64,000 nucleotides of DNA from a virus. Lineage: Duplodnaviria > Heunggongvirae > Uroviricota > Caudoviricetes. How positions within the stretch are numbered: the stretch's first letter is position 1; every line of letters begins with the position of its first letter. Position numbers and translations under genes: made by a program. The notes under the pieces were generated by a model, which saw nothing but the letters and a program-made list of their open reading frames with translations, made no database searches and was not told where the DNA came from. Shown here piece after piece: positions 11,738 through 49,963 of this stretch. The DNA is taken from positions 46,087-110,086 of IMG/VR virus record IMGVR_UViG_3300028591_000113. One strand, given 5' to 3'.

Positions 11738-11812
11738 ATCGGTCTAGTGTAACGGCAACACAGCTGTCTCCAAAACAGCACGATCAGGGTTCGAATCCTT
11801 GGGCCGGTGCCA
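11738..11812 (+). tRNA. tRNA-Trp (CCA)
   Basis: Acceptor ATCGGTC/GGCCGGT, D-stem GTGT/CACA, anticodon stem GCTGT/ACAGC loop CTCCAAA, discriminator G. Confidence 0.75.
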
Positions 11813-20339: not shown

Positions 20340-20430
20340 GCGGGCTTAGTTATAAATGGTAAAACTTGTGTTGAAAAAGGAAGAAAACACTAACTGTCCT
20401 TGTTGCGGGTTCAACTCCCGTAGTCCGCTC
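20340..20430 (+). other. tRNA-like element (acceptor GCGGGCT/AGTCCGC, T-arm GCGGG-TTCAACT-CCCGT, no CCA) with unresolved anticodon arm; possible atypical or degenerate tRNA
   Basis: Clear acceptor and T-arm pairing about 91 nt apart; no 7-nt anticodon loop could be placed. Confidence 0.3.
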
Positions 20431-23583: not shown

Positions 23584-24454
23584 GCTCACAACGAAAAAGT
23601 ATTATCGAGAGATAAGAAAAAGTAGTTCGAGATACGAGAAACAGGGAAACCTGAAACTCCGCTGGCAAACGAAAATGCTGCCTTGGGCAAGCATAATGGC
23701 CCACCTTGTTCTTTGAAAATTATTTTGCAGCTTGGTGAAGATGGTCTTGCGGACCGCCAAGCAGTGACTCAAGAATGAAAGTGTCATGGGATACTGTGAC
23801 ATAAGTAAGAAACCTAGATAGTGATAGATAGGTAAACCTACTCATAAGAAAAGTAAGGATTGAGCCATGTGGGCAATATGTTAACTTGAACTCTAAACAA
23901 TACTTAAACTCGGCGGTGACAAGAGGCTACGCAGTAACAATTAAGAATGCGCCCCACCGCGAGATACTAGCGTGAGAAACTAGTATCTGGGTTCTCAAAG
24001 GAAACCGATGTCTTGATGTCTAGAAATAGACTATAACCGAGTAAAGTAGTGCGAGTAGCCGTACGACAGGAAGATAGAAAATGGCTTTAATTTGCAAGTA
24101 TGATCGCAAATCCTACACAGAATCTGAAGCTCGGTGAAAGTTGATGAGTAATGACCTCATCTTGTGTTAGTGTCTTAGGACACACTTCAGGAAGTGTAAG
24201 ATCGCAACTTACCCTCAGACCTGCGGTGCAATGTGTGAAACAAGAGTAGTTAATAAGTGTTGTATCATGAATAAAAGTGGGCAAAATGATTTTTAAAGAA
24301 CAAGGTAACTTGTTCAACTCACCTAACAATAGACCCCGTTAATAGTAAGGGATGGACCTCTGGAGCGAGAGCATTACAGGTTGAAGGTAGACGTGGCCCT
24401 TACCGATAGTGAGTTAAATATTAAGCATAGCGTGTCGAAAGGCACGCTTTTTTG
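23584..24454 (+). ncRNA. about 870-nt ORF-free GC-rich transcription unit; candidate large structured ncRNA
   Basis: Promoter upstream, terminator AGCGTG-tcgaaagg-CACGCT+T5 at 24429-24454, no plausible ORF on either strand (only spurious short ones). Confidence 0.45.
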
Positions 24455-28713: not shown

Positions 28714-28869
28714 TATATACTAAAATTCATTTTTGCCGAAACGTGACAAAATAACTATATTATATATGTATCAGTATTAAAGGCAAAATTACAGTAATGT
28801 AATGACGCAAAACTATAGGATCCTCCGACGGATAGCCAGTTACCTGACCAATCCTTTGGAGGTTTTTAT

Positions 28870-29445
28870 ATGAAATTAAGAAACAAATTGGCTGCAATTA
28901 CAGCCGCTGCCATGTTAGCTTTCACAGGCGTTGGTTTTGCTGCATGGACTTTCAATAACAGTGTCGCACAAGAACAAGAAGTTGGCACATATGTTACATC
29001 AGCAATCAATGCTAAAAATGTTGCCCTTTCTGGTGACACAACAGTCTATTTAGTTTTAGACCAAGAAAAACCATATTGGTCAACTGCCGTTAATAATGGC
29101 TCCAAACCAGTTGAACTCGCAAATGGTAAAATCACAGTTACACCTGATTATGATTTAACAAATAATAATGATGGTGCCTCTTGGACTTATCATTTAACAA
29201 GTGCCATTACTGTTAGCAGCGACATCGCAAATTATGTTAATGTTACAGGTTTTGACGTTGTTGAAAAAACTGGTACAATTACTGCCGCAGATCATGAAAC
29301 CATCGCAGCAGTCGATTACAACTTACCAAGTCTCGCTTACACTACTAATAAACCAGCAAACTATGCTGATTATACAACAATGTTAAGCGCTGTAAGTGGT
29401 GATATTATTGAATTCTCATTCAACTGCACATTCACACAAAACTAG
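28870..29445 (+). CDS. secreted TasA/camelysin-family-like protein with signal peptide ending ...GFAAW-TFNN
   Basis: N-terminal signal peptide MKLRNKLAAITAAAMLAFTGVGFA followed by AAWTFNNSV, resembling TasA TWAAFND start of mature protein; GGAGGT RBS. Confidence 0.5.
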   Translation: MKLRNKLAAITAAAMLAFTGVGFAAWTFNNSVAQEQEVGTYVTSAINAKNVALSGDTTVYLVLDQEKPYWSTAVNNGSKPVELANGKITVTPDYDLTNNNDGASWTYHLTSAITVSSDIANYVNVTGFDVVEKTGTITAADHETIAAVDYNLPSLAYTTNKPANYADYTTMLSAVSGDIIEFSFNCTFTQN

Positions 29446-41722: not shown

Positions 41723-42007
41723 ATGTACTTTACAGAATTAGCAGAATACGTTGGCGGTTTAGATACCTTCTTAGATAAATTTGAAGTTAAAAGCGCCATG
41801 AATGAATCTGGCAAATTAGTCATTTTAGAAACAAAAGAAACTTACATCTATGAAGATGAAGGTGATGCCGATAAAAAGATTAATGAAGCCCGCCAAGACA
41901 TCGGTTTCCTTGAAGCCAAAAAGAAATTCAAACAAGGTAAAGCCAATAAGAACGGTGAAATTACTCGTCCAGATACTTGGACAGTTGTCATTAAATTAAG
42001 TCACTAA
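41723..42007 (+). CDS. hypothetical protein (94 aa)
   Basis: ORF with AAGGAG RBS. Confidence 0.5.
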   Translation: MYFTELAEYVGGLDTFLDKFEVKSAMNESGKLVILETKETYIYEDEGDADKKINEARQDIGFLEAKKKFKQGKANKNGEITRPDTWTVVIKLSH

Positions 42008-42282
42008 TGGAAATCAAAATCCAACATACCATGTATATGGATGTAACATTTATAGGTACTCCTGAAGAATGTTTTGAAATATATAAATGGTATGACCAAT
42101 ACAAAACAGGCAAGACAAATGATAGAATTATCAAAGCTGTAATTAACATAATTCAAGAAATGCCATATGAAAGGGCGCTTGAAATGTGTCAAAATATGCA
42201 TCTTGATAAAGATTATGATTTGGAAACTATGTCTACTGATGAATTAAAAGCCCTTCTTATTGACAAAATCACAACAAAATAA
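42007..42282 (+). CDS. hypothetical protein (91 aa)
   Basis: ORF. Confidence 0.5.
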   Translation: MEIKIQHTMYMDVTFIGTPEECFEIYKWYDQYKTGKTNDRIIKAVINIIQEMPYERALEMCQNMHLDKDYDLETMSTDELKALLIDKITTK

Positions 42283-42284
42283 TT

Positions 42285-42638
42285 ATGACACGACCATTGT
42301 CCGGCATATACAAAATTACCAATACTAAAAACAATAAAGTCTATGTCGGACAATCGCAAAATGTCTATGAGCGAGAATCCGAACATTTTCTTGCACTTAG
42401 ACGAGGCAGACATCCAAACAAACTAATGCAAAAAGATTGGAATAAAGATAATCATGGCTTTAGGTTTGATGTTATAGAGTTTGTTCCGCTTAAAGATTTA
42501 AATGAGCGCGAAAAATACTGGATCGATAAATTGGGCACTATGGAGCCGCATGGTTATAACCAAGACTGAGTTCCATATAAAAGAAAAGAACCAAAGAAAC
42601 CTGCTTATAAACAAAAACATTACAGGAGGACAAGATAA
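42285..42638 (+). CDS. GIY-YIG homing-endonuclease-like protein
   Basis: GIYKITN...KVYVGQS...RESEH motif; one TGA-Trp extends ORF to 117 aa. Confidence 0.7.
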
Positions 42639-42842
42639 TGGAAGGTTATCATGCCTGTTGATGCGCACTTCCAGCAATAAGAGGTAATACTGACTGTTGC
42701 CAGGGATGCGCAAATAATCCTTGAAAAGATAAAAACATTCTAGATGAATGAAAAAATTTTAATATTGATGAAATAAAAAATGGTCGTATGGTTGTTGAGT
42801 ATGATAAAAATGGCTCAATAATTAAAATTACATATTACAATT

Positions 42843-42939
42843 AGGGGTGTGGCGTAATGGTAGCGCAGCGGTCTTCAAAACCGTAAAGATTCCGTGTCCA
42901 AAGCGGTAGGTGCGGGTTCGACTCCTGTCACCCCTGCCA
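42843..42939 (+). tRNA. tRNA with UCA anticodon (reads UGA), 97 nt, long variable arm, selC-like T-arm GGTTCGACTCCTGT; suppressor/tRNA-Sec-like
   Basis: Acceptor AGGGGTG/CACCCCT perfect + G73 + CCA, anticodon stem GCGGT/ACCGT loop CTTCAAA (U33, A37), about 25-nt extra arm. Confidence 0.65.
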
Positions 42940-42963
42940 GTTTTATAAAGAAAGGATTTTAAT

Positions 42964-43788
42964 ATGAAAAACTATGCATATGTTAGTGTATTAGGAAATA
43001 ATGAGTTTCTTAACGCAGCAATAGTTTTAATATACTCTTGAAAAAGAACTAAATCACAATATCCTTTTTATTTAATTATAACTACAGAAATTACAGAGCA
43101 AAATAAGGAAATCTTACGTAGTATTGGATATTCATTAATTGAAATTGAACCATACTGTCCTGAAATTTATAAAAAACAATTAGCAGAATGTACCAATCTT
43201 GATGCGATAAATATTCATGGTAGAAATACTAATATAGGTTGAAAACACTATTTTAACATGCTTTATTGTTGAAGTTTAGTTCAATTTGATAAAATATGTT
43301 GAGTAGATATTGATGTCATATTTATCCAAAATATAGATGATTTATTTAATCAGTATGATGATTTTGCTATACAATATCATGACCATTATAAGTTTGATGT
43401 TAATTTTATTATTTTAAAACCAAATCAGACTGTTTTTAAACAATTACTTGATTTTGCAGAAAAATGCCCGCCTAGAGAGGATTTTCAGGTGCTTGATGGT
43501 TATCAAATTCTTACATACTTTTTTAAAAATGAATGTAAACAAGAGAGTAGTTATATACGTTATATAGTATATGATGTGCGCTGATTGGGCACTCTTAATT
43601 ATGATTATTGACGTTGCTATAATAAAATAAGAGTTATACATTTTGGTGGCATAAAACCTTGAATGTTATCCGATATAACATGTAGAGATATATACCAAGA
43701 CTATTGATGAAAAGAGTATCTTCATATATTAAATTATGGCATTGAAGATATTAACAATAAAATGGGACTACAGTTAGAGGAGTATTAA
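42964..43788 (+). CDS. glycosyltransferase family 8 (glycogenin-like) paralog 1; 9 TGA-Trp, 0 TGG
   Basis: Alignment by eye to glycogenin: YCW-SLVQFDKICW-VDIDVIFIQNIDDLF (DxD) and HFGGIKPW; TGA sits at conserved Trp positions. Confidence 0.7.
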
Positions 43789-43792
43789 TATA

Positions 43793-44611
43793 ATGAATAA
43801 TATTTATTTATCAGTATTCAATCATAATGAACAAATTTATCCTCTAATTACTTTAATGTATTCTTGGAAACAAACAAATTCAATATATCCGTATTACTTA
43901 TTAATCACTCCCAATATTAACAAAAAGCATAGAAAAATAATAAAATGATTAGGTTTTAAAATTATAGAAATAGATACATGAGCATCTTTAGATGAGGGTA
44001 TTAACTGTAGTGAAATAGAAAAACAAGATATAATTGCTAAATTTAAAGTATTTGATTTAATACAATTTGATAAAATTTTAATGTTAGATTGTGATATTTT
44101 GTTTTTACATAATACTGACTATTTATTCGAATATCCAACTATAACGAGCGTTTCTTGGCAATCTAAAGAGTTCCGAAGTGAGTGCTTGTTATTAGAACCA
44201 AATCATGAACTATATTTAAGTTTAATTAATTATGTTAATCAATATGAACATTTTAAAGATTATTCTTCTATTTTAAAAGATTTTTTCTGAGATTTAATAT
44301 TTAGACGAGACCATTTGTTTGAACGAACTTCTTTTTATAATTTATTAGACTGTAATAATGACAATGTTAATTGAATTAATGAATGAATAAAAATTGATAT
44401 TATTTATATGACTAATGGAAACAAGCCATGAAAAACTGCAACTACAATAACTGACAGCTGAAGTAAAGATTGATATACTGCAAGAATGCTATATCAACAC
44501 TACTTAAACACATTAAATTATGGAATTGATGATCTCCGTCATAAAAAAATAATAACAAAAGAAGATTTATTAAAACCCGAAGAAAAATATAATGAAATTA
44601 AAAAAGATTAA
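43793..44611 (+). CDS. glycosyltransferase family 8 paralog 2
   Basis: Same architecture (LDCDILFLHNTDYLF DxD motif), frame intact only with TGA=Trp. Confidence 0.65.
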
Positions 44612-44637
44612 TATGATTAATGAAAGGATCCTTCTAT

Positions 44638-45480
44638 ATGAATAATTATGCCTATGTCAGTTTAATTGCTACAAACAATTATATTGGTGCGGCAGTTACA
44701 ATGATGGAATCTTGAAGACAATTAAACTCTAAGTATCCATTTTATTTGATGGTAACTGACAACATTACAGATGAAAATCGAATCATTTTACAAATATTAG
44801 GATTTAAATTAATAGATATAAAAGAATGACGCCCAGAGTCTTATGATGCTCAAAGAAGCACCATTACAGATGAGCAAGTTTTAATATGGCATGGAACCAA
44901 TGATGTCGAAACTCGTGGATGGCGCCATACTTTTTCTAAATTACTAGTGTGAAACCTAACACAATTTGATAAAGTTTGCTGACTTGATTTGGATATTATT
45001 TTCTTTCGCAATATAGATGATGTTTTTGATTTTCCTACTCCAGCTTGATTAGGACCAGATATTAATGGACATAGTGCATCGCAAATTTTTGTAATAGAAC
45101 CCAACACTGTTGTGTTTAATAAACTTATTAAGTTTGCTGAACACTTCCCAAATGATGAAAAAAAACTTTACACAGATGAAGAAGTATTGCACAGTTTTTT
45201 CCAACAAGAAGTTGAGTATAATAAAATTATTCCACTATATTTTGTATATAATTGAAACAGATGCGGTATTACTTGTGAATTTATAGAAAATTCATTAAAA
45301 ATTCGTGGCGTTCATATGACTGGCACAGAGAAGCCATGATTAAGAGGTCGTAGTTTTGTTTCACATTATAGTGTTGGATGGTATCCCGCATATTTTATTT
45401 GAAATTATTATATATCTTTATACAATGCAGGAGCGAGTAAGTTAAATCAAAAAGGGTTTAATTTACCTATTATAGATTAA
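44638..45480 (+). CDS. glycosyltransferase family 8 paralog 3
   Basis: LDLDIIFFRNIDDVF, HMTGTEKPW motifs. Confidence 0.7.
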
Positions 45481-45481
45481 T

Positions 45482-46354
45482 ATGAAGAATTATGTATATA
45501 TGTCTTTATTTAGCCATAATGAGTATATTTATCCTTTGTTGGCTTTAATGTATTCTTGAAAAAAGACGCAATCAAAATATCCTTATTATTTATTAGTTAC
45601 GCCAAACATTTCTGCGGAAAACAAAGAAATAGTGCAATCTATTGGTTTTCATATCATTGAAACAGAGGAATGGCAACCTCAAAGTTATAAAATGATGTGC
45701 GCGCAAATTTCTAAGCAAGTAAAAGATTTTTGGCAATGACATGGTGCTACAGATGAAGAAAAAGGATGGCGCCATACTTTTACAAAATTTAAAGCCTTTG
45801 GACTGACTCAATTTGACAAAATATTATTATTAGACTGTGATATTTTAATCTTAAAGAATGTAGATGACCTCTTTGAATATCCTTCTATTACAAGTGTTTC
45901 TTGGTGAAAGGGCAATTTTTGTAGTGGATGCTTATTATTTGAACCCAATCAAAAATTATGGGAAAAACTAGAAGATTTTTCTAATGAATATGTTAGAACC
46001 AATCAAGGTTTTCCTTATGATGATTATATGATATTAAAAGATTTCTTTACAGAAGATATAGTTAATAATCGTGGTCATTTAATTCCTAAAACCGATTTCT
46101 TTAATTTATTTGATTTCAAAGATAATCCTGAAAAAAGCGCCGCTTTATGACAAGATATTAGAATTATACATATGACTGGTCAAACCAAACCATGGCGACG
46201 CGGGAAACCTGTTAATATAGATATGCGCAATGAATGAGGATTTGTTCTGTTGTGGCATGCTTATTATTTACAATTATTAAATAATGCCATTAAAGAATTA
46301 CAACAACATGGTTTTAATTCTTTATCTGAAATAGATTATGAAAAGTGAGATTAA
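45482..46354 (+). CDS. glycosyltransferase family 8 paralog 4
   Basis: LDCDILILKNVDDLF, HMTGQTKPW motifs. Confidence 0.7.
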
Positions 46355-46357
46355 AAT

Positions 46358-47240
46358 ATGAAAAATTATGCTTATGTAAGTTTATTAGCAACTGATAATT
46401 ATATTGGCGCCGCCATAGTTTTAATGGAGTGTTGAAGAGAATTAAAATCTCCTTATCCATTTTACATGATGGTTACAGAAAATATTTCACAAGAAAAAAT
46501 TGAGATATTAGAAGTATTAGGCTTTAAAATTATTCATATTAATGAATGGCAACCAACTGAATATGTTAATATGAAAGAGAGCTTAAAAGATGATAAAGAA
46601 GCTATTCATTGGCATGGAACAAATCCTTTAAGTAATGGTTGGCAACATATCTTTTCTAAATTATTAATATGAAATCTTACTCAATTTGACAAAGTGTGTT
46701 GAGTTGATTTAGATATTATTTTCTTTCGCAACATTGATGATGTATTCGATTTACCTGGGTCAACATTTTTAGAACCAGATGCAAATGATTATGTATCTTC
46801 ACAATTAATTGTGGCAGAACCAAATGAACATTTATTTAAAGCGTTAAAAGAATATGGTGATAGATTTATTCCAACAGAAGAAACCCATCATAGTATTTTT
46901 ACAGATGAAGATATTATTCACTCATTCTTTCATGATGAAATTGCAAATTGTAAAAAATTTATTCCAATTACATATAGTTATGCATGGAACAGATGCTCTA
47001 TTGCTTTAGAGTTTATGCAATTAAGTCATCAATTACATGGTGTTCATATTACTGGCCCAGCAAAACCATGACTTTTAGGAAATGATTATATTCGTAATTT
47101 TTCGTCTCAATGGTATCCAGCAAAAGCAATTTGAAGTTATTACGTTTCTTGTTATAACGTAGGAGTTAAAAAACTTATGGCAAAAGGCTTTAAAAATTTA
47201 ACTTTATGACCAGAAGGAGACGAATATGACCTCAAAGTTT
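46358..47240 (+). CDS. glycosyltransferase family 8 paralog 5
   Basis: VDLDIIFFRNIDDVF, HITGPAKPW motifs; C-terminus reads through TGA into start region of next gene. Confidence 0.65.
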
Positions 47241-48374
47241 AGAATCCATGTTTTAGGTTTACCACATACAAAAACACACTTAGATTATGTTGCTTGCGCT
47301 TTTACACAGAAGATTTTATTATTCTGTAAAATGATGCACCAGCGTGGACATTACATTATTCACTATGGCGTAGAGGGATCAAATCCAGAGTGCGATGAGA
47401 ATGTTGTTGTTTTAAGTGATGAAGAATTTACAAAAGAGTTCGGAGTAAATAAAAAACATACCGACCTTTATAAATTTAATACTGATAGTGAAGCAGTTCG
47501 TATTTATACTGAAAACTGTATTAAAGAAATCAGCAAAAGAAAACAAAAAAATGATTTTATTTTACCATTCTGGGGATGTGGCCAACAAGCAATTTGTGAG
47601 TCATTCCCTGATATGCTTACCGTAGAGCCTGGTATTGGCTATATCGGCGCCGCATTTGCACCATTTAAGATTTATGAATCTTACTTCATGTTAAGTTATG
47701 ATGCAGGTCGTACTAATAATTATTTATTACCATCATTTTATGATGTAGTAATTCCTCCATTTTTTGATTTAGATGAATTTGAATATAATCCAAATGACCG
47801 CACTAAAGGTCCAGATCGCTATTTCGCTTTTTTAGGACGCATTGGCGACCATAAAGGAGTTAATATTGCTATACAAGTGTGTAAGGTATTAGGTGTGAAA
47901 TTAAAAATAGGCGGTCAGCCTTGTGATGAATATAAGAATTTTAATTGACCAGATTGTGTAGAATATATTGGTCATTGTGATGTGCAACAGAGAAAAGAAT
48001 TGTTTAAAAATGCAATAGGTACTTTTGTTGCTTCAAGATATATGGAACCTTTTGGTTATGTTCAAATTGAATCTTTATTGTGCGGAACTCCTATTATTAC
48101 TACAGATTGAGGCGCTTTCCCAGAAGTAAACATTGAAGGAGTGACTGGTTATAGATGTCAGACTTTTAATGACTTTCTAGCAGCAGCACTTCATCTACTT
48201 AATCGAGATATTGATTATATAAACTGTCGTAAGCGCGGTGAAGACTATCGTTTTGAGAAAATTGCGCCGCTTTATGAAAAACACTTCCAAGATATATTAA
48301 ATCTGACTTTGAAATCAGGTTGGTATACAATTAGTCCAGAAATTGAAGAAAAAATTAACAAATTAAAGGAGTAA
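47226..48374 (+). CDS. GT-B glycosyltransferase (GT4-like, EX7E motif) paralog A
   Basis: C-terminal [24 protein letters not shown] motif typical of GT4; two standard ORF pieces joined by TGA. Confidence 0.6.
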
Positions 48375-48376
48375 AT

Positions 48377-49519
48377 ATGAAATTTCGTTTCCATGTTTTA
48401 AGTATTCCACATACCCGCACCAATTTAGACTATACTGCTTGCGCTTATACACAAAAGGTATTTAAGTTCTGTAAGATGATGCATCAACGTGGACATTATA
48501 TTATTCATTACGGTGTAGAAGGCTCAAATCCAGAATGCGATGAAAATGTCACTGTAGTTAGTAATGAAATATATGACCGTGTATATGGTAATCATGATTA
48601 TCACAAAAACTGGTTTAAGTTTGATGAAAATGACGAATGTTATCAGACTTTTTATAAAAATACTATTGAAGAAATTAATAAACGTAAACAACCAGGAGAT
48701 TTTGTTTTAGCATTTTGGGGTCCAGGTAATAAGCCAATTTGCGACGCGCTTTCTGATATGATTATTGTAGAACCTGGAATTGGATATTGCAATAGTTGGA
48801 CACAATTTAGAGCTTATGAATCTTATGCTATTATGCACGCAGACCAAGGACGCGATGCAATGCTTTATGCTAATCCTAAATGGTATTTCACTGTAATTCC
48901 AAATTATTTTGATGTGGCTGATTTTGACTGGACTAAAACATATGAAGAACGTAAAAAAGATCCTTATTTCTTATTTTTAGGGCGCGTTTATGACGGCAAA
49001 GGATTAAATATTGCTATACAAATTTGTAAGCAACTTGGTATTAAACTGAAGGTTGCGGGGCAATTAACACCAGAATACGAAAATTTCCCATGAGACGAAC
49101 AGATTGAATTTGTTGGTTATGCTGACAAAGATAAACGTAATGAGTTAATGGGAGGTGCATTAGCATCTATTGTTGCTTCTACTTATGTCGAACCTTTTGG
49201 AGGTGTTCAGGTAGAAAATCTATTATGCGGAACTCCAACAATTACTACTGATTGGGGTGCTTTTGTAGAGAATAACATTGAAGGCGTTACTGGTTATAGA
49301 TGTCGCACATTTGACGATTTCATTAATGCGGCATTAAATTGTTATGAAGGTAAAATAAAATACGAAAATTGTCGTAAACAAGGCGAAAAATTTTCTTTAG
49401 AAAATATCGCTCTTAAATATGAAAAATTCTTTCAAGATATTTGGAATATTTATAATGGTGATGGATGGTATCAATTTACCGAGCAAACAAAAGAACGCTT
49501 AAAGAATTTTAAAAAATAG
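48377..49519 (+). CDS. GT-B glycosyltransferase (GT4-like) paralog B
   Basis: YVEPFGGVQVENLLCGTPTITTDW; about 60% identical by eye to paralog A. Confidence 0.6.
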
Positions 49520-49595
49520 TTTAGTTCGGGGTGCCTCAGCCCGATATATACACTGCGCAAAGGCGCGCATTATTATTACGGAGGTAGAAAGTAAT

Positions 49596-49868
49596 ATGAA
49601 GTATTATTCAGAACAAACAAAGAAACTCTATGAATCTCAAGAAGATTTAGAAAAAGCCGAAAAAGACTTTGAAGAAAAGAAAGCGGTTGCATTAAAAAAG
49701 AAAGAGGCTCGTGAAGCCAGAGCAAAAGAAGTTGCAGATGCTTATAATAAGTATGTTGAACTTTTTAATGCTTTTGTTAAAGATTATGGTTACTATGTAG
49801 ATTATCGTAAGTCTGCTGGTGATGAAATGCTTAGAGTCTTTAGTACTCTTTTAGATTGGCCATTTTAA
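49596..49868 (+). CDS. small Lys/Glu-rich coiled-coil protein (90 aa)
   Basis: ORF; terminator 49890-49919. Confidence 0.45.
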   Translation: MKYYSEQTKKLYESQEDLEKAEKDFEEKKAVALKKKEAREARAKEVADAYNKYVELFNAFVKDYGYYVDYRKSAGDEMLRVFSTLLDWPF

Positions 49869-49963
49869 TTAAATAAATATTTACTGAGACAAGAGTCGAG
49901 AAATCGACTCTTTTAATTTGACATAAAATAAGTAGAATAGTAGATTAATAATGAGGTAATAGT

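Follow-up and report, generated by a model that had tools for sequence, protein, structure and literature searches.

Phages in which the opal codon UGA has been reassigned to tryptophan (genetic code 4) have been described as carrying a part written in the standard code and a recoded part in one genome (Borges et al., bioRxiv 10.1101/2021.08.26.457843). Suppressor tRNAs were detected in only ~35% of the code-4 genomes in that study, which explicitly left open how host enzymes charge them, and in other work 13 phage tRNA(UCA) were tested and all inserted Trp in E. coli cell-free reactions (PMC12636597). Here we describe a tRNA gene with the anticodon UCA at 42843–42939 (plus strand) of a 64,000-nt stretch of viral DNA from a member of the Caudoviricetes (IMG/VR record IMGVR_UViG_3300028591_000113, positions 46,087 to 110,086; hereafter, the window, whose numbering we use throughout). 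The window resembles the phages of both reports in combining standard and TGA=Trp parts, in having a single tRNA(UCA), in avoiding TGA stops and in its low GC content (35.6%). Neither paper, while reporting that tRNA(UCA) insert Trp, mentions an extra arm or a second anticodon-like loop, and the best-studied suppressors of such phages are paired with a phage tryptophanyl-tRNA synthetase (TrpRS); the 64 kb studied here, in contrast, hold no TrpRS gene, and the tRNA carries instead a pseudo-anticodon arm, a hairpin whose loop displays CCA, the anticodon of tRNA-Trp.

The body of the molecule resembles bacterial tRNA-Trp(CCA) and the tRNA-Trp(UCA) of Mycoplasma and Spiroplasma in G73, A1-U72, G2–G5/C68–C71, the D arm, the anticodon stem and the T arm. 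Ordinary tRNA-Trp is a class I tRNA of 72–76 nt with a variable loop of 4–5 nt, whereas the window tRNA is 97 nt long and has a second anticodon-like hairpin in its variable region. We consider it reasonably probable, judging from sequence comparisons, that this tRNA is an opal suppressor that arose from tRNA-Trp and that its CCA pseudo-anticodon arm keeps Trp identity with the host TrpRS. Phage opal suppressors, TGA-to-Trp recoding, selenocysteine tRNA (tRNA-Sec), class II arms, allo-tRNAs and, as an engineering idea, pseudo-anticodon arms are already known; the new point is the conserved CCA pseudo-anticodon arm.

ARAGORN called the gene as a 97-nt tRNA with anticodon tca, and the Rfam tRNA model RF00005 matched 42843–42936 with 58.9 bits (E ~1e-10), above its curated gathering score of 29, which places the element among cloverleaf tRNAs. 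This stretch encodes a genuine phage tRNA. Only one of the 33 tRNAs called by ARAGORN in the window (34 if one weak Rfam match is included) carries UCA, as had been claimed in an earlier sequence-only reading that singled this gene out as the sole reader of UGA; the perfect 7-bp acceptor stem, G73, encoded CCA end, loop CUUCAAA and long extra arm described there likewise hold. The gene is made up of the following parts.

42843–42939, plus strand: tRNA gene with anticodon UCA, 97 nt including the encoded CCA end (ARAGORN, RF00005; 102 bits with R1, a covariance model built from dual-hairpin relatives whose training set includes this sequence)
42843–42849, plus strand: 5′ strand of the acceptor stem, AGGGGTG, forming seven perfect pairs with CACCCCT at 42929–42935, among them A1-U72, G2-C71, G3-C70, G4-C69 and G5-C68
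Between the acceptor 5′ strand and the anticodon arm, plus strand: D arm GCGT-AATGGTA-GCGC, with a 4-bp stem and a 7-nt loop containing G18 and G19, preceded by TG and followed by A
42868–42884, plus strand: putative decoding anticodon arm GCGGT-CTTCAAA-ACCGT, with the loop CUUCAAA and UCA at 42875–42877
42885–42891, plus strand: single-stranded 7-nt linker AAAGATT, which separates the anticodon arm from the extra hairpin
42892–42906, plus strand: extra (variable-arm) hairpin CCGT-GTCCAAA-GCGG, with a 4-bp stem that covaries in 36 relatives and a 7-nt loop
42898–42900, plus strand: pseudo-anticodon CCA, positions 3–5 of the extra-hairpin loop
42907–42911, plus strand: 5-nt linker TAGGT before the T stem; its GGT is near-invariant in the family and it resembles the short variable loop of ordinary tRNA-Trp
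42912–42928, plus strand: T arm GCGGG-TTCGACT-CCTGT (sequence, covariation, Rfam)
42936–42939, plus strand: discriminator G73 (42936) and encoded CCA end (42937–42939), from sequence

The variable region thus spans 27 nt (42885–42911). Thermodynamic folding of the single sequence was not significant (z = −0.19), and its minimum free energy (MFE) structure is not the cloverleaf, which lies within 0.5 kcal/mol above it; because folding energy alone is unremarkable, the case for the structure rests on the covariance models and on covariation among relatives.

The surroundings are phage-like: the 33 tRNAs stand in arrays, PHROG matches include a DNA topoisomerase II large subunit and a NinI-like phosphatase, and the closest relatives of the tRNA lie on IMG/VR contigs of 24–118 kb. 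A blastn search of 42000–46000 against GenBank phages gave no DNA match. From the 3′ end of the tRNA to the start of the next open reading frame (ORF; 42964, ATG) there is a gap of 24 nt, and the gene sits, as reported earlier, directly upstream of a TGA-rich glycosyltransferase block. The features that bear on the meaning of UGA are these.

42964–51910, plus strand: TGA-rich block of five GT8 paralogs, two GT1 paralogs and a 648-aa protein, with 9, 8, 8, 6, 6, 2, 1 and 15 in-frame TGA
57790–58728, plus strand: gene for a Stealth-family phosphotransferase with 6 in-frame TGA, aligned to 8j2n, 7dxi and 7s6n
11738–11812, plus strand: ordinary tRNA-Trp(CCA), the sole one of the window (ARAGORN, Rfam), in a tRNA array of the TGA-free part

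Between 37.4 and 52.4 kb, 79 in-frame TGA are spread across 17 genes and the ratio of TGA to TGG is 79:42, compared with 9:105 at 1–24.4 kb, where the nine TGA fall mostly in doubtful minus-strand ORFs. ORFs were delimited at TAA/TAG, and every counted one reaches TAA or TAG. TGA stops are rare (under code 11, 2 of 25 ORFs at 1–24.4 kb end in TGA), and when TGA is read as sense (code 4), ORFs of 150 aa or more cover 45 kb instead of 27 kb. This layout agrees with the pattern of a standard part and a recoded part with depleted TGA stops. Three of the six TGA in the Stealth gene fall on Trp residues that are invariant in three solved structures, bacterial CpsY (8j2n), a fly protein (7dxi) and human GNPTAB (7s6n). 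In the GT8 (42964–47242) and GT1 (47226–49519) paralogs, TGA and TGG alternate in conserved columns (XWXXX, YXXWW, X-WWW, XXXWX, YXWXW, XW); the commonest partner of TGA is Trp, the others are aromatic or hydrophobic, Gly is absent and Ser is not enriched. The TGA at invariant Trp and the alternation of TGA with TGG indicate that UGA here means Trp, and not Gly (code 25), Ser or Sec. Homologs of the GT8 proteins are full-length proteins predicted from short metagenome contigs, probably recoded-table translations, and were excluded as independent evidence for this assignment. The earlier suggestion that the tRNA is the suppressor for UGA=Trp in the adjacent genes gains from these TGA at conserved Trp positions, together with the Trp-like body and identity nucleotides to which we now turn; the accompanying remark that the tRNA-Trp of the arrays reads CCA is also correct, for the single gene at 11738–11812.

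The window tRNA carries the bacterial Trp set A1-U72, G2-C71, G3-C70, G4-C69, G5-C68 and G73; these acceptor pairs and G73 are Trp identity elements in E. coli and B. subtilis, with G73 the major bacterial determinant (PMC9976931). G73 is invariant in 36 aligned relatives, and A1-U72/G2-C71 vary in some of them (G1-U72 and C2-G71 in L001 and L002). The remaining Trp identity element, C34-C35-A36, is absent from the decoding anticodon, which is U34-C35-A36, and CCA is found instead at 42898–42900. Nucleotides 1–41 share 90% identity with an ordinary tRNA-Trp(CCA) from a phage scaffold of the human gut (MT836871.1), and the sole change in the anticodon arm relative to that tRNA is C34 to U. With R1, the phage's own tRNA-Trp(CCA) at 11738–11812 was the second-best match in the window (54 bits). 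By its nucleotides, then, the tRNA body is of Trp type.

In bacterial tRNA-Sec the acceptor stem has 8 bp and the T stem 5 bp (8/5), and a D stem of 6 bp closes a D loop of 4 nt. The window tRNA shares with it (selC, RF01852) the anticodon UCA, G73, a long extra arm and a length of ~95 nt, features that do not suffice for membership, and ARAGORN labels it 'tRNA-SeC'. That it is a selC tRNA-Sec, or a recent derivative still using SelA and SelB, is nevertheless close to negligible in our estimate. Its acceptor/T fold is 7/5, since an eighth pair would set T8 opposite T, and its D arm has 4 bp and a 7-nt loop. In a focused Rfam run, one lower-scoring match of the same clan was dropped in favor of RF00005. 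The 'SeC' label was given to every tca tRNA called in this analysis, including ordinary ones of 75–76 nt, and appears to follow the anticodon alone. True tRNA-Sec found in the same scan as its relatives form a separate class with different extra loops. The 79 in-frame TGA in 17 genes at Trp positions make insertion dependent on a selenocysteine insertion sequence (SECIS) impossible (genes for SelA, SelB and SelD were not searched for systematically). We therefore rejected a selC identity on the 7/5 fold, the 4-bp D stem, the preference for RF00005 and the abundance of TGA at Trp positions. The 'selC-like' or Sec-derived label of the sequence-only reading falls with it, as does its use of the T arm as a mark of tRNA-Sec, because GGTTCGAnTCC also occurs in ordinary tRNAs of the window, such as a Lys tRNA. 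Some relatives (L006, L020, L045 and others) do have a longer, Sec-like D stem. They belong to a subfamily (L006, L011, L012, L020, L038, L045, L050, L051 and L063) of tRNA(UCA) with G73, a 7-bp acceptor stem and the CCA pseudo-arm that combines a Sec-like D stem of 5–6 bp with a TTAT/CTAT 3′ linker, and that either arose independently or reflects an old split of the dual-hairpin design.

A long extra arm could also be taken as a sign of Ser identity, in the manner of class II tRNA-Ser or of allo-tRNAs, in which case UGA would be read as Ser. G73 and G2-C71 are common to E. coli tRNA-Ser identity, and long-arm allo-tRNAs serve as suppressors that insert Ser (PMC5389517, PMC7590224). A five-helix cloverleaf with a hairpin in the variable region is also common to the window tRNA, class II tRNAs (Ser, Leu, Tyr) and allo-tRNAs (PMC5389517). 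In class II tRNAs, however, a single nucleotide separates the arm from the anticodon stem and the loops are short and variable, and allo-tRNAs have acceptor/T folds of 8/4 or 9/3, whereas the arm described here is held by linkers of 5–7 nt, has a fixed 7-nt loop of anticodon type and sits on a 7/5 body. In the window's own Ser and Leu tRNAs the extra stem likewise begins 1 nt after the anticodon stem and closes loops of 3–6 nt, with Ser stems of 5–6 bp, unlike the 7-nt 5′ linker, 4-bp stem, 7-nt loop and 5-nt 3′ linker of the tRNA(UCA). A single bulge in the variable-arm stem suffices to abolish charging by SerRS in engineered tRNAs (PMC7590224). Together with the Trp-like body, and with TGA at invariant Trp positions that alternate with TGG in columns where Ser is not enriched, these differences make Ser identity, which the sequence-only reading had raised, very improbable.

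The loop of the extra arm, GUCCAAA, is the tRNA-Trp anticodon loop CUCCAAA with one change. We analyzed how general this is by scanning IMG/VR with the UCA anticodon arm (GGTCTTCAAAACC) and the T loop fixed and 20–45 nt left free between them, so that the extra arm was unconstrained, which gave 67 unique matches. Of 42 long-arm tRNA(UCA) with G73 and a 7-bp acceptor stem, 41 have a hairpin with a 7-nt N-U-CCA-A-N loop in the same register. The extra stem has 4–5 bp, the loops include CTCCAAA, GTCCAAA, TTCCAAC and GTCCATA, and many of the arms read GGT-CTCCAAA-ACC, a perfect Trp anticodon arm. The window tRNA, with its Trp-like 7/5 body, G73, UCA arm and N-U-CCA-A-N extra loop, belongs to this family of dual-hairpin tRNAs as modeled by R1. 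The CCA loop was found in none of the ~22 true tRNA-Sec in the same scan, which have 8-bp acceptor stems, GGA/GGG starts and extra loops such as TTAC, GACGA or AGG. Of ~380 other unique long-arm tRNAs from the fetched loci (Ser, Leu, Tyr, Trp-CCA and others), 12 contain TCCA[AT] in their variable region. Three further tRNA(UCA) with a 7-bp acceptor stem (L017, L044 and L075) have U73 and a 6-bp extra stem with the loop AUCCA or AACCA, which puts CCA in a different register.

In alignment A1, which comprises 36 members, covariation extends to all five helices: paired cells make up 97.8% and 22 of 26 pairs show compensatory changes, none of 500 shuffles reached the observed pairing, and slid controls were 41–50% paired. 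Pair 51-65 of the extra helix, for example, occurs as CG in 17 members, GC in 8, AU in 4, GU in 3 and UA in 3, while the loop residues U-C-C-A-A are invariant or near-invariant, and the MFE structure of the family consensus is exactly the five-helix structure. The closest relatives, L001 and L002, have the same anticodon arm and extra arm as the window tRNA, acceptor and T stems that differ from it by compensatory changes, and unrelated flanks. These patterns indicate that the extra arm is a selected feature. JGI metagenomes contributed at least 119 loci and at least 83 further unique sequences of the G73 type. With the same anticodon arm but a short variable loop we found only 16 viral loci, ~5 of them Trp-like, which makes the dual-hairpin form the majority within that anticodon-arm subset. 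No dual-hairpin tRNA was present in 50,697 GenBank phage records, and in cellular genomes the Trp-like dual-hairpin type occurred solely on contigs of metagenome-assembled genomes, probably of phage origin. Median ORF cover of the dual-hairpin loci rises from 0.44 to 0.71 from code 11 to code 4, a weak indication, since the comparison of coding density with Sec-type loci is confounded by GC content: loci of high GC yield long ORFs that are spurious.

The 3′ part of the family consensus, starting at the CCA hairpin, aligns at ~85% with annotated tRNA-Trp genes, whose genuine anticodon arm is matched by the pseudo-arm, and the 5′ part aligns with the 5′ halves of tRNA-Trp. Since both parts align to tRNA-Trp, the molecule resembles a tRNA-Trp whose anticodon arm was duplicated. 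One could suppose that the CCA hairpin is the true anticodon arm and that the UCA hairpin was inserted after position 26, with UGA read as a near-cognate codon through an altered hinge or by arm switching. Between the CCA loop and the T loop the spacing matches ordinary tRNA-Trp, the 3′ part aligns with whole tRNA-Trp 3′ parts, and the hairpin that stacks under the D stem cannot be identified from secondary structure. A further scan fixed the D arm and a later TCCAAA and left the first arm free. Of the 27 dual-hairpin tRNAs recovered, 26 have UCA in that arm and one has CUA (L095); a sense anticodon never occurs. Conversely, a UCA-like extra loop occurs in none of the many phage long-arm tRNAs whose first arm carries CCA. 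An always stop-reading first hairpin, in a canonical arm of 5 bp and 7 nt, would be unexplained if the CCA hairpin decoded; A26 also stands directly before the UCA hairpin as in normal tRNAs, and ARAGORN and Infernal both place the anticodon there. Decoding by the CCA arm is thus hardly credible, and the pattern points to the first arm as the stop-codon reader, with the CCA arm accompanying changed anticodons only.

The exceptional L095 tRNA (7800–7892, plus strand, on IMGVR_UViG_3300028805_000058) has a Trp-like body, G73, the amber-reading first loop CTCTAAA and the extra arm GAGGT-GTCCAAA-GCCTC, and may be a TAG-to-Trp suppressor.

No TrpRS gene was found in the window or in ~85 dual-hairpin loci with an E. 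coli TrpRS query, which did detect the protein of L237 (39% identity). An alignment query found 48 IMG/VR loci with TrpRS homologs (a single TrpRS protein used as query had matched only itself), of which four carry a tRNA(UCA), 0.1–2.6 kb from the TrpRS gene; all four tRNAs are 75–76 nt long and lack the extra arm. They are encoded at 5856–5931 in L491, 3368–3442 in L493 and L494, and 3452–3526 in L495, and the pairs of tRNA(UCA) and TrpRS in these four loci resemble the 'code-change' cassettes of Jade phages. The L491 tRNA has A73, and the L491 TrpRS has many relatives, bacterial or phage, at 64–70% identity.

TrpRS and TyrRS bind tRNA across the dimer from the side of the variable arm, so that an extra arm would be accessible to the enzyme. 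We infer that the extra loop is bound by TrpRS and that decoding falls to the UCA arm. On the mechanism we propose, the first hairpin after the D arm would decode UGA, and probably UGG too, on the ribosome, allowing the phage, in a standard-code host, to translate a block whose Trp codons are mostly TGA. Bacterial TrpRS relies on the anticodon as a major identity element, part of which would be lost through the change of C34 to U, and the second anticodon-arm-like hairpin in the variable region would compensate by presenting the canonical Trp anticodon (N-U-CCA-A-N). This pseudo-anticodon, together with G73, A1-U72 and G2–G5/C68–C71, would let the host TrpRS charge the suppressor with Trp, the single-stranded linkers on either side would free the extra hairpin to reach the anticodon-binding domain, and the arm may also repel other synthetases. 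The phage would then have no need of a TrpRS of its own. On the simplest reading, the CCA arm, which is seen only beside changed anticodons, makes up for the identity signal that the anticodon has lost.

Several points weigh against this mechanism. The contrast with TrpRS-bearing phages comes from four loci with three distinct tRNA sequences and from partial loci of ~6–14 kb, and some phages whose examined DNA shows no TrpRS nearby also have Trp-like tRNA(UCA) with a short arm. Bacterial opal-suppressor derivatives of tRNA-Trp are reportedly tryptophanylated without an extra arm (bioRxiv 10.1101/2021.08.26.457843), and the 13 tRNAs tested in PMC12636597 may or may not include the dual-hairpin type. 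At the equivalent of position 32 the window loop carries G in place of C, and only 4 bp form the stem of this hairpin. The family counts are valid only for the subset of tRNAs with the anticodon-arm sequence fixed in the pattern scans. The CCA-loop motif alone is evidently not unique either, since some Caulobacteraceae tRNA-Sec have UCCAAAAG. These emerged from a scan of genome contigs that demanded TCCAA in the arm and so drew in true tRNA-Sec genes: the pattern-selected loci L200–L234 (Caulobacteraceae, Phenylobacterium, Verrucomicrobiales and others) hold genuine 8-bp tRNA-Sec whose extra loop is UCCAAAAG or UCCAAC. Because armless opal tRNA-Trp is charged and short-arm phage versions exist, the arm is possibly not strictly needed; it may improve charging or specificity rather than enable it, or may serve another role.

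Such another role is the content of the alternative that we take most seriously, although we think it unlikely: a Trp-inserting opal suppressor that TrpRS recognizes through G73 and the acceptor stem alone, with an extra arm kept for a different purpose. The arm could improve UGA decoding or competition with RF2 (a Hirsh-like effect near the hinge of the D and anticodon arms), protect against host anticodon nucleases, engage a Trp T-box or a factor that binds the CCA loop, or be a neutral relic of duplication. Besides the charging of armless derivatives and the short-arm phage tRNA(UCA) already mentioned, this alternative can appeal to the resemblance to a tRNA-Trp with a duplicated anticodon arm, by which the CCA loop could have been inherited and not selected, and to the tRNAs of jumbo phages, which commonly have long extra arms with unrelated loops. 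A neutral relic, however, would not hold U-CCA-A fixed above a covarying stem across diverged bodies, including the subfamily with a different D arm. The few suppressors encoded beside a phage TrpRS gene are armless, which also argues against an unrelated purpose, as does a parallel in a second kind of phage tRNA, where the extra loop shares a single property with the CCA loop: it is the identity anticodon of the cognate synthetase.

This second kind is a phage tRNA-Ile(UAU) of 90–96 nt with A73, whose long arm has a 4–5 bp stem and the 7-nt loop C-A-GAU-U-A; GAU, at loop positions 3–5, is the anticodon of the major tRNA-Ile. A scan for the GAU arm alone gave at least 120 IMG/VR viral loci, and 86 of the 88 tRNAs called there have the anticodon UAU; conversely, in loci chosen without the GAU motif, 6 of 14 tRNA(UAU) are of the GAU-loop type. 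Examples lie at 727–820 in L099, 14037–14131 in L084, 1547–1640 in L157 and, on the minus strand, 8691–8781 in L144, with others in L251–L369. IleRS, like TrpRS, reads the anticodon. The GAU loop looks like a second pseudo-anticodon system, one that would serve IleRS and the decoding of AUA. We also considered whether the CCA of the extra loop pairs with a UGG in the D loop, and rejected the idea because it fails for the Ile (GAU) case and would break the elbow contacts of G18 and G19.

Synthetic biology offers a close precedent. In engineered pseudo-anticodon allo-tRNAs, a copy of an anticodon arm placed in the variable arm recruits the anticodon-binding domain of a synthetase, and a stop codon is read by the real anticodon. 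In an amber suppressor, a variable arm carrying a GUG pseudo-anticodon arm enhanced histidylation by HisRS variants with an extra anticodon-binding domain (PMC7590224). Those molecules combine a synthetic chassis with a HisRS fused to an extra domain, whereas the present ones are natural, concern Trp (and apparently Ile) and presumably use unmodified host enzymes. Synthetases also recognize non-decoding anticodon-like loops in the thrS operator and in viral tRNA-like structures (TLS) such as TYMV TLS-Val (PMC9976931). These mimics belong to mRNAs or viral genomes; the mimic described here, in contrast, lies inside a translating tRNA, beside the real anticodon arm. We regard the chances as evenly balanced that these tRNAs represent a general natural device of phages, in which a pseudo-anticodon in the variable arm serves a host synthetase while the real anticodon is changed to match a codon that the host reads otherwise; its candidate cases, recognized by sequence, would be UCA and once CUA with CCA for TrpRS, and UAU with GAU for IleRS.

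In searchable, largely open-access full text, including the Borges preprint, PMC12636597, PMC5389517, PMC7609411, PMC9976931 and PMC13092985, we came across no account of a natural tRNA in which a second arm mimics the anticodon arm. If the proposed mechanism is correct, this would be the first natural case found of a functional tRNA whose variable arm has taken over an identity element from the anticodon, and the parallel in tRNA-Ile(UAU) suggests a general principle that extends to a second amino acid. It would explain how recoded phages get their suppressors charged without synthetases of their own, predict which recoded phages rely on host TrpRS and which on their own, and account for the annotation labels 'SeC', 'Undet' and '???' on such genes. 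The dual-hairpin tRNAs would also be natural scaffolds for the reassignment of UGA and UAG in genetic-code engineering and synthetic biology.

A weak promoter-like site, suggestive only, lies ~20 nt upstream of the window tRNA.

42795–42822, plus strand: promoter-like site, TTGAGT and AATAAT separated by 16 nt

The number of such sites is not significant (5 found, 5.5 expected). In the relatives L001 and L002, clear TTGACA-17-TATAAT/TATATT boxes stand as far from the tRNA as the window site does.

Other long-arm tRNAs were seen in the same survey. Phage tRNA(CCA) of 88–92 nt with G73 (in L096–L198, e.g., L109, L111 and L167) have class II-like D arms (GGCCGAGTGGTCGAAGGC) and extra loops such as GAAA and UAAU that are unrelated to any anticodon, and in the tRNA arrays of jumbo phages long arms seem common on 'tRNA-Trp' and also on His, Asn, Lys, Cys, Arg and Gln tRNAs. 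Within the window, a weak tRNA-like element at 20340–20429 (plus strand) matched RF00005 with 32.1 bits and received no ARAGORN call; it has good acceptor and T arms, and its middle (GTGTT GAAAAAGGAAGAAAACAC ...) lacks a normal anticodon arm. Because no tRNA-Tyr was called in the window, this element may be an aberrant or intron-containing tRNA. A full-length ROOL RNA (RF03087, 196 bits against a gathering score of 99) lies at 23707–24300 (plus strand), between the tRNA arrays and the first TGA-containing genes. Finally, a c-di-GMP-I riboswitch aptamer (RF01051, 58.8 bits against 35) at 28772–28847 (plus strand), just upstream of the ORF at 28870–29445, is predicted to be a phage-borne second-messenger sensor.

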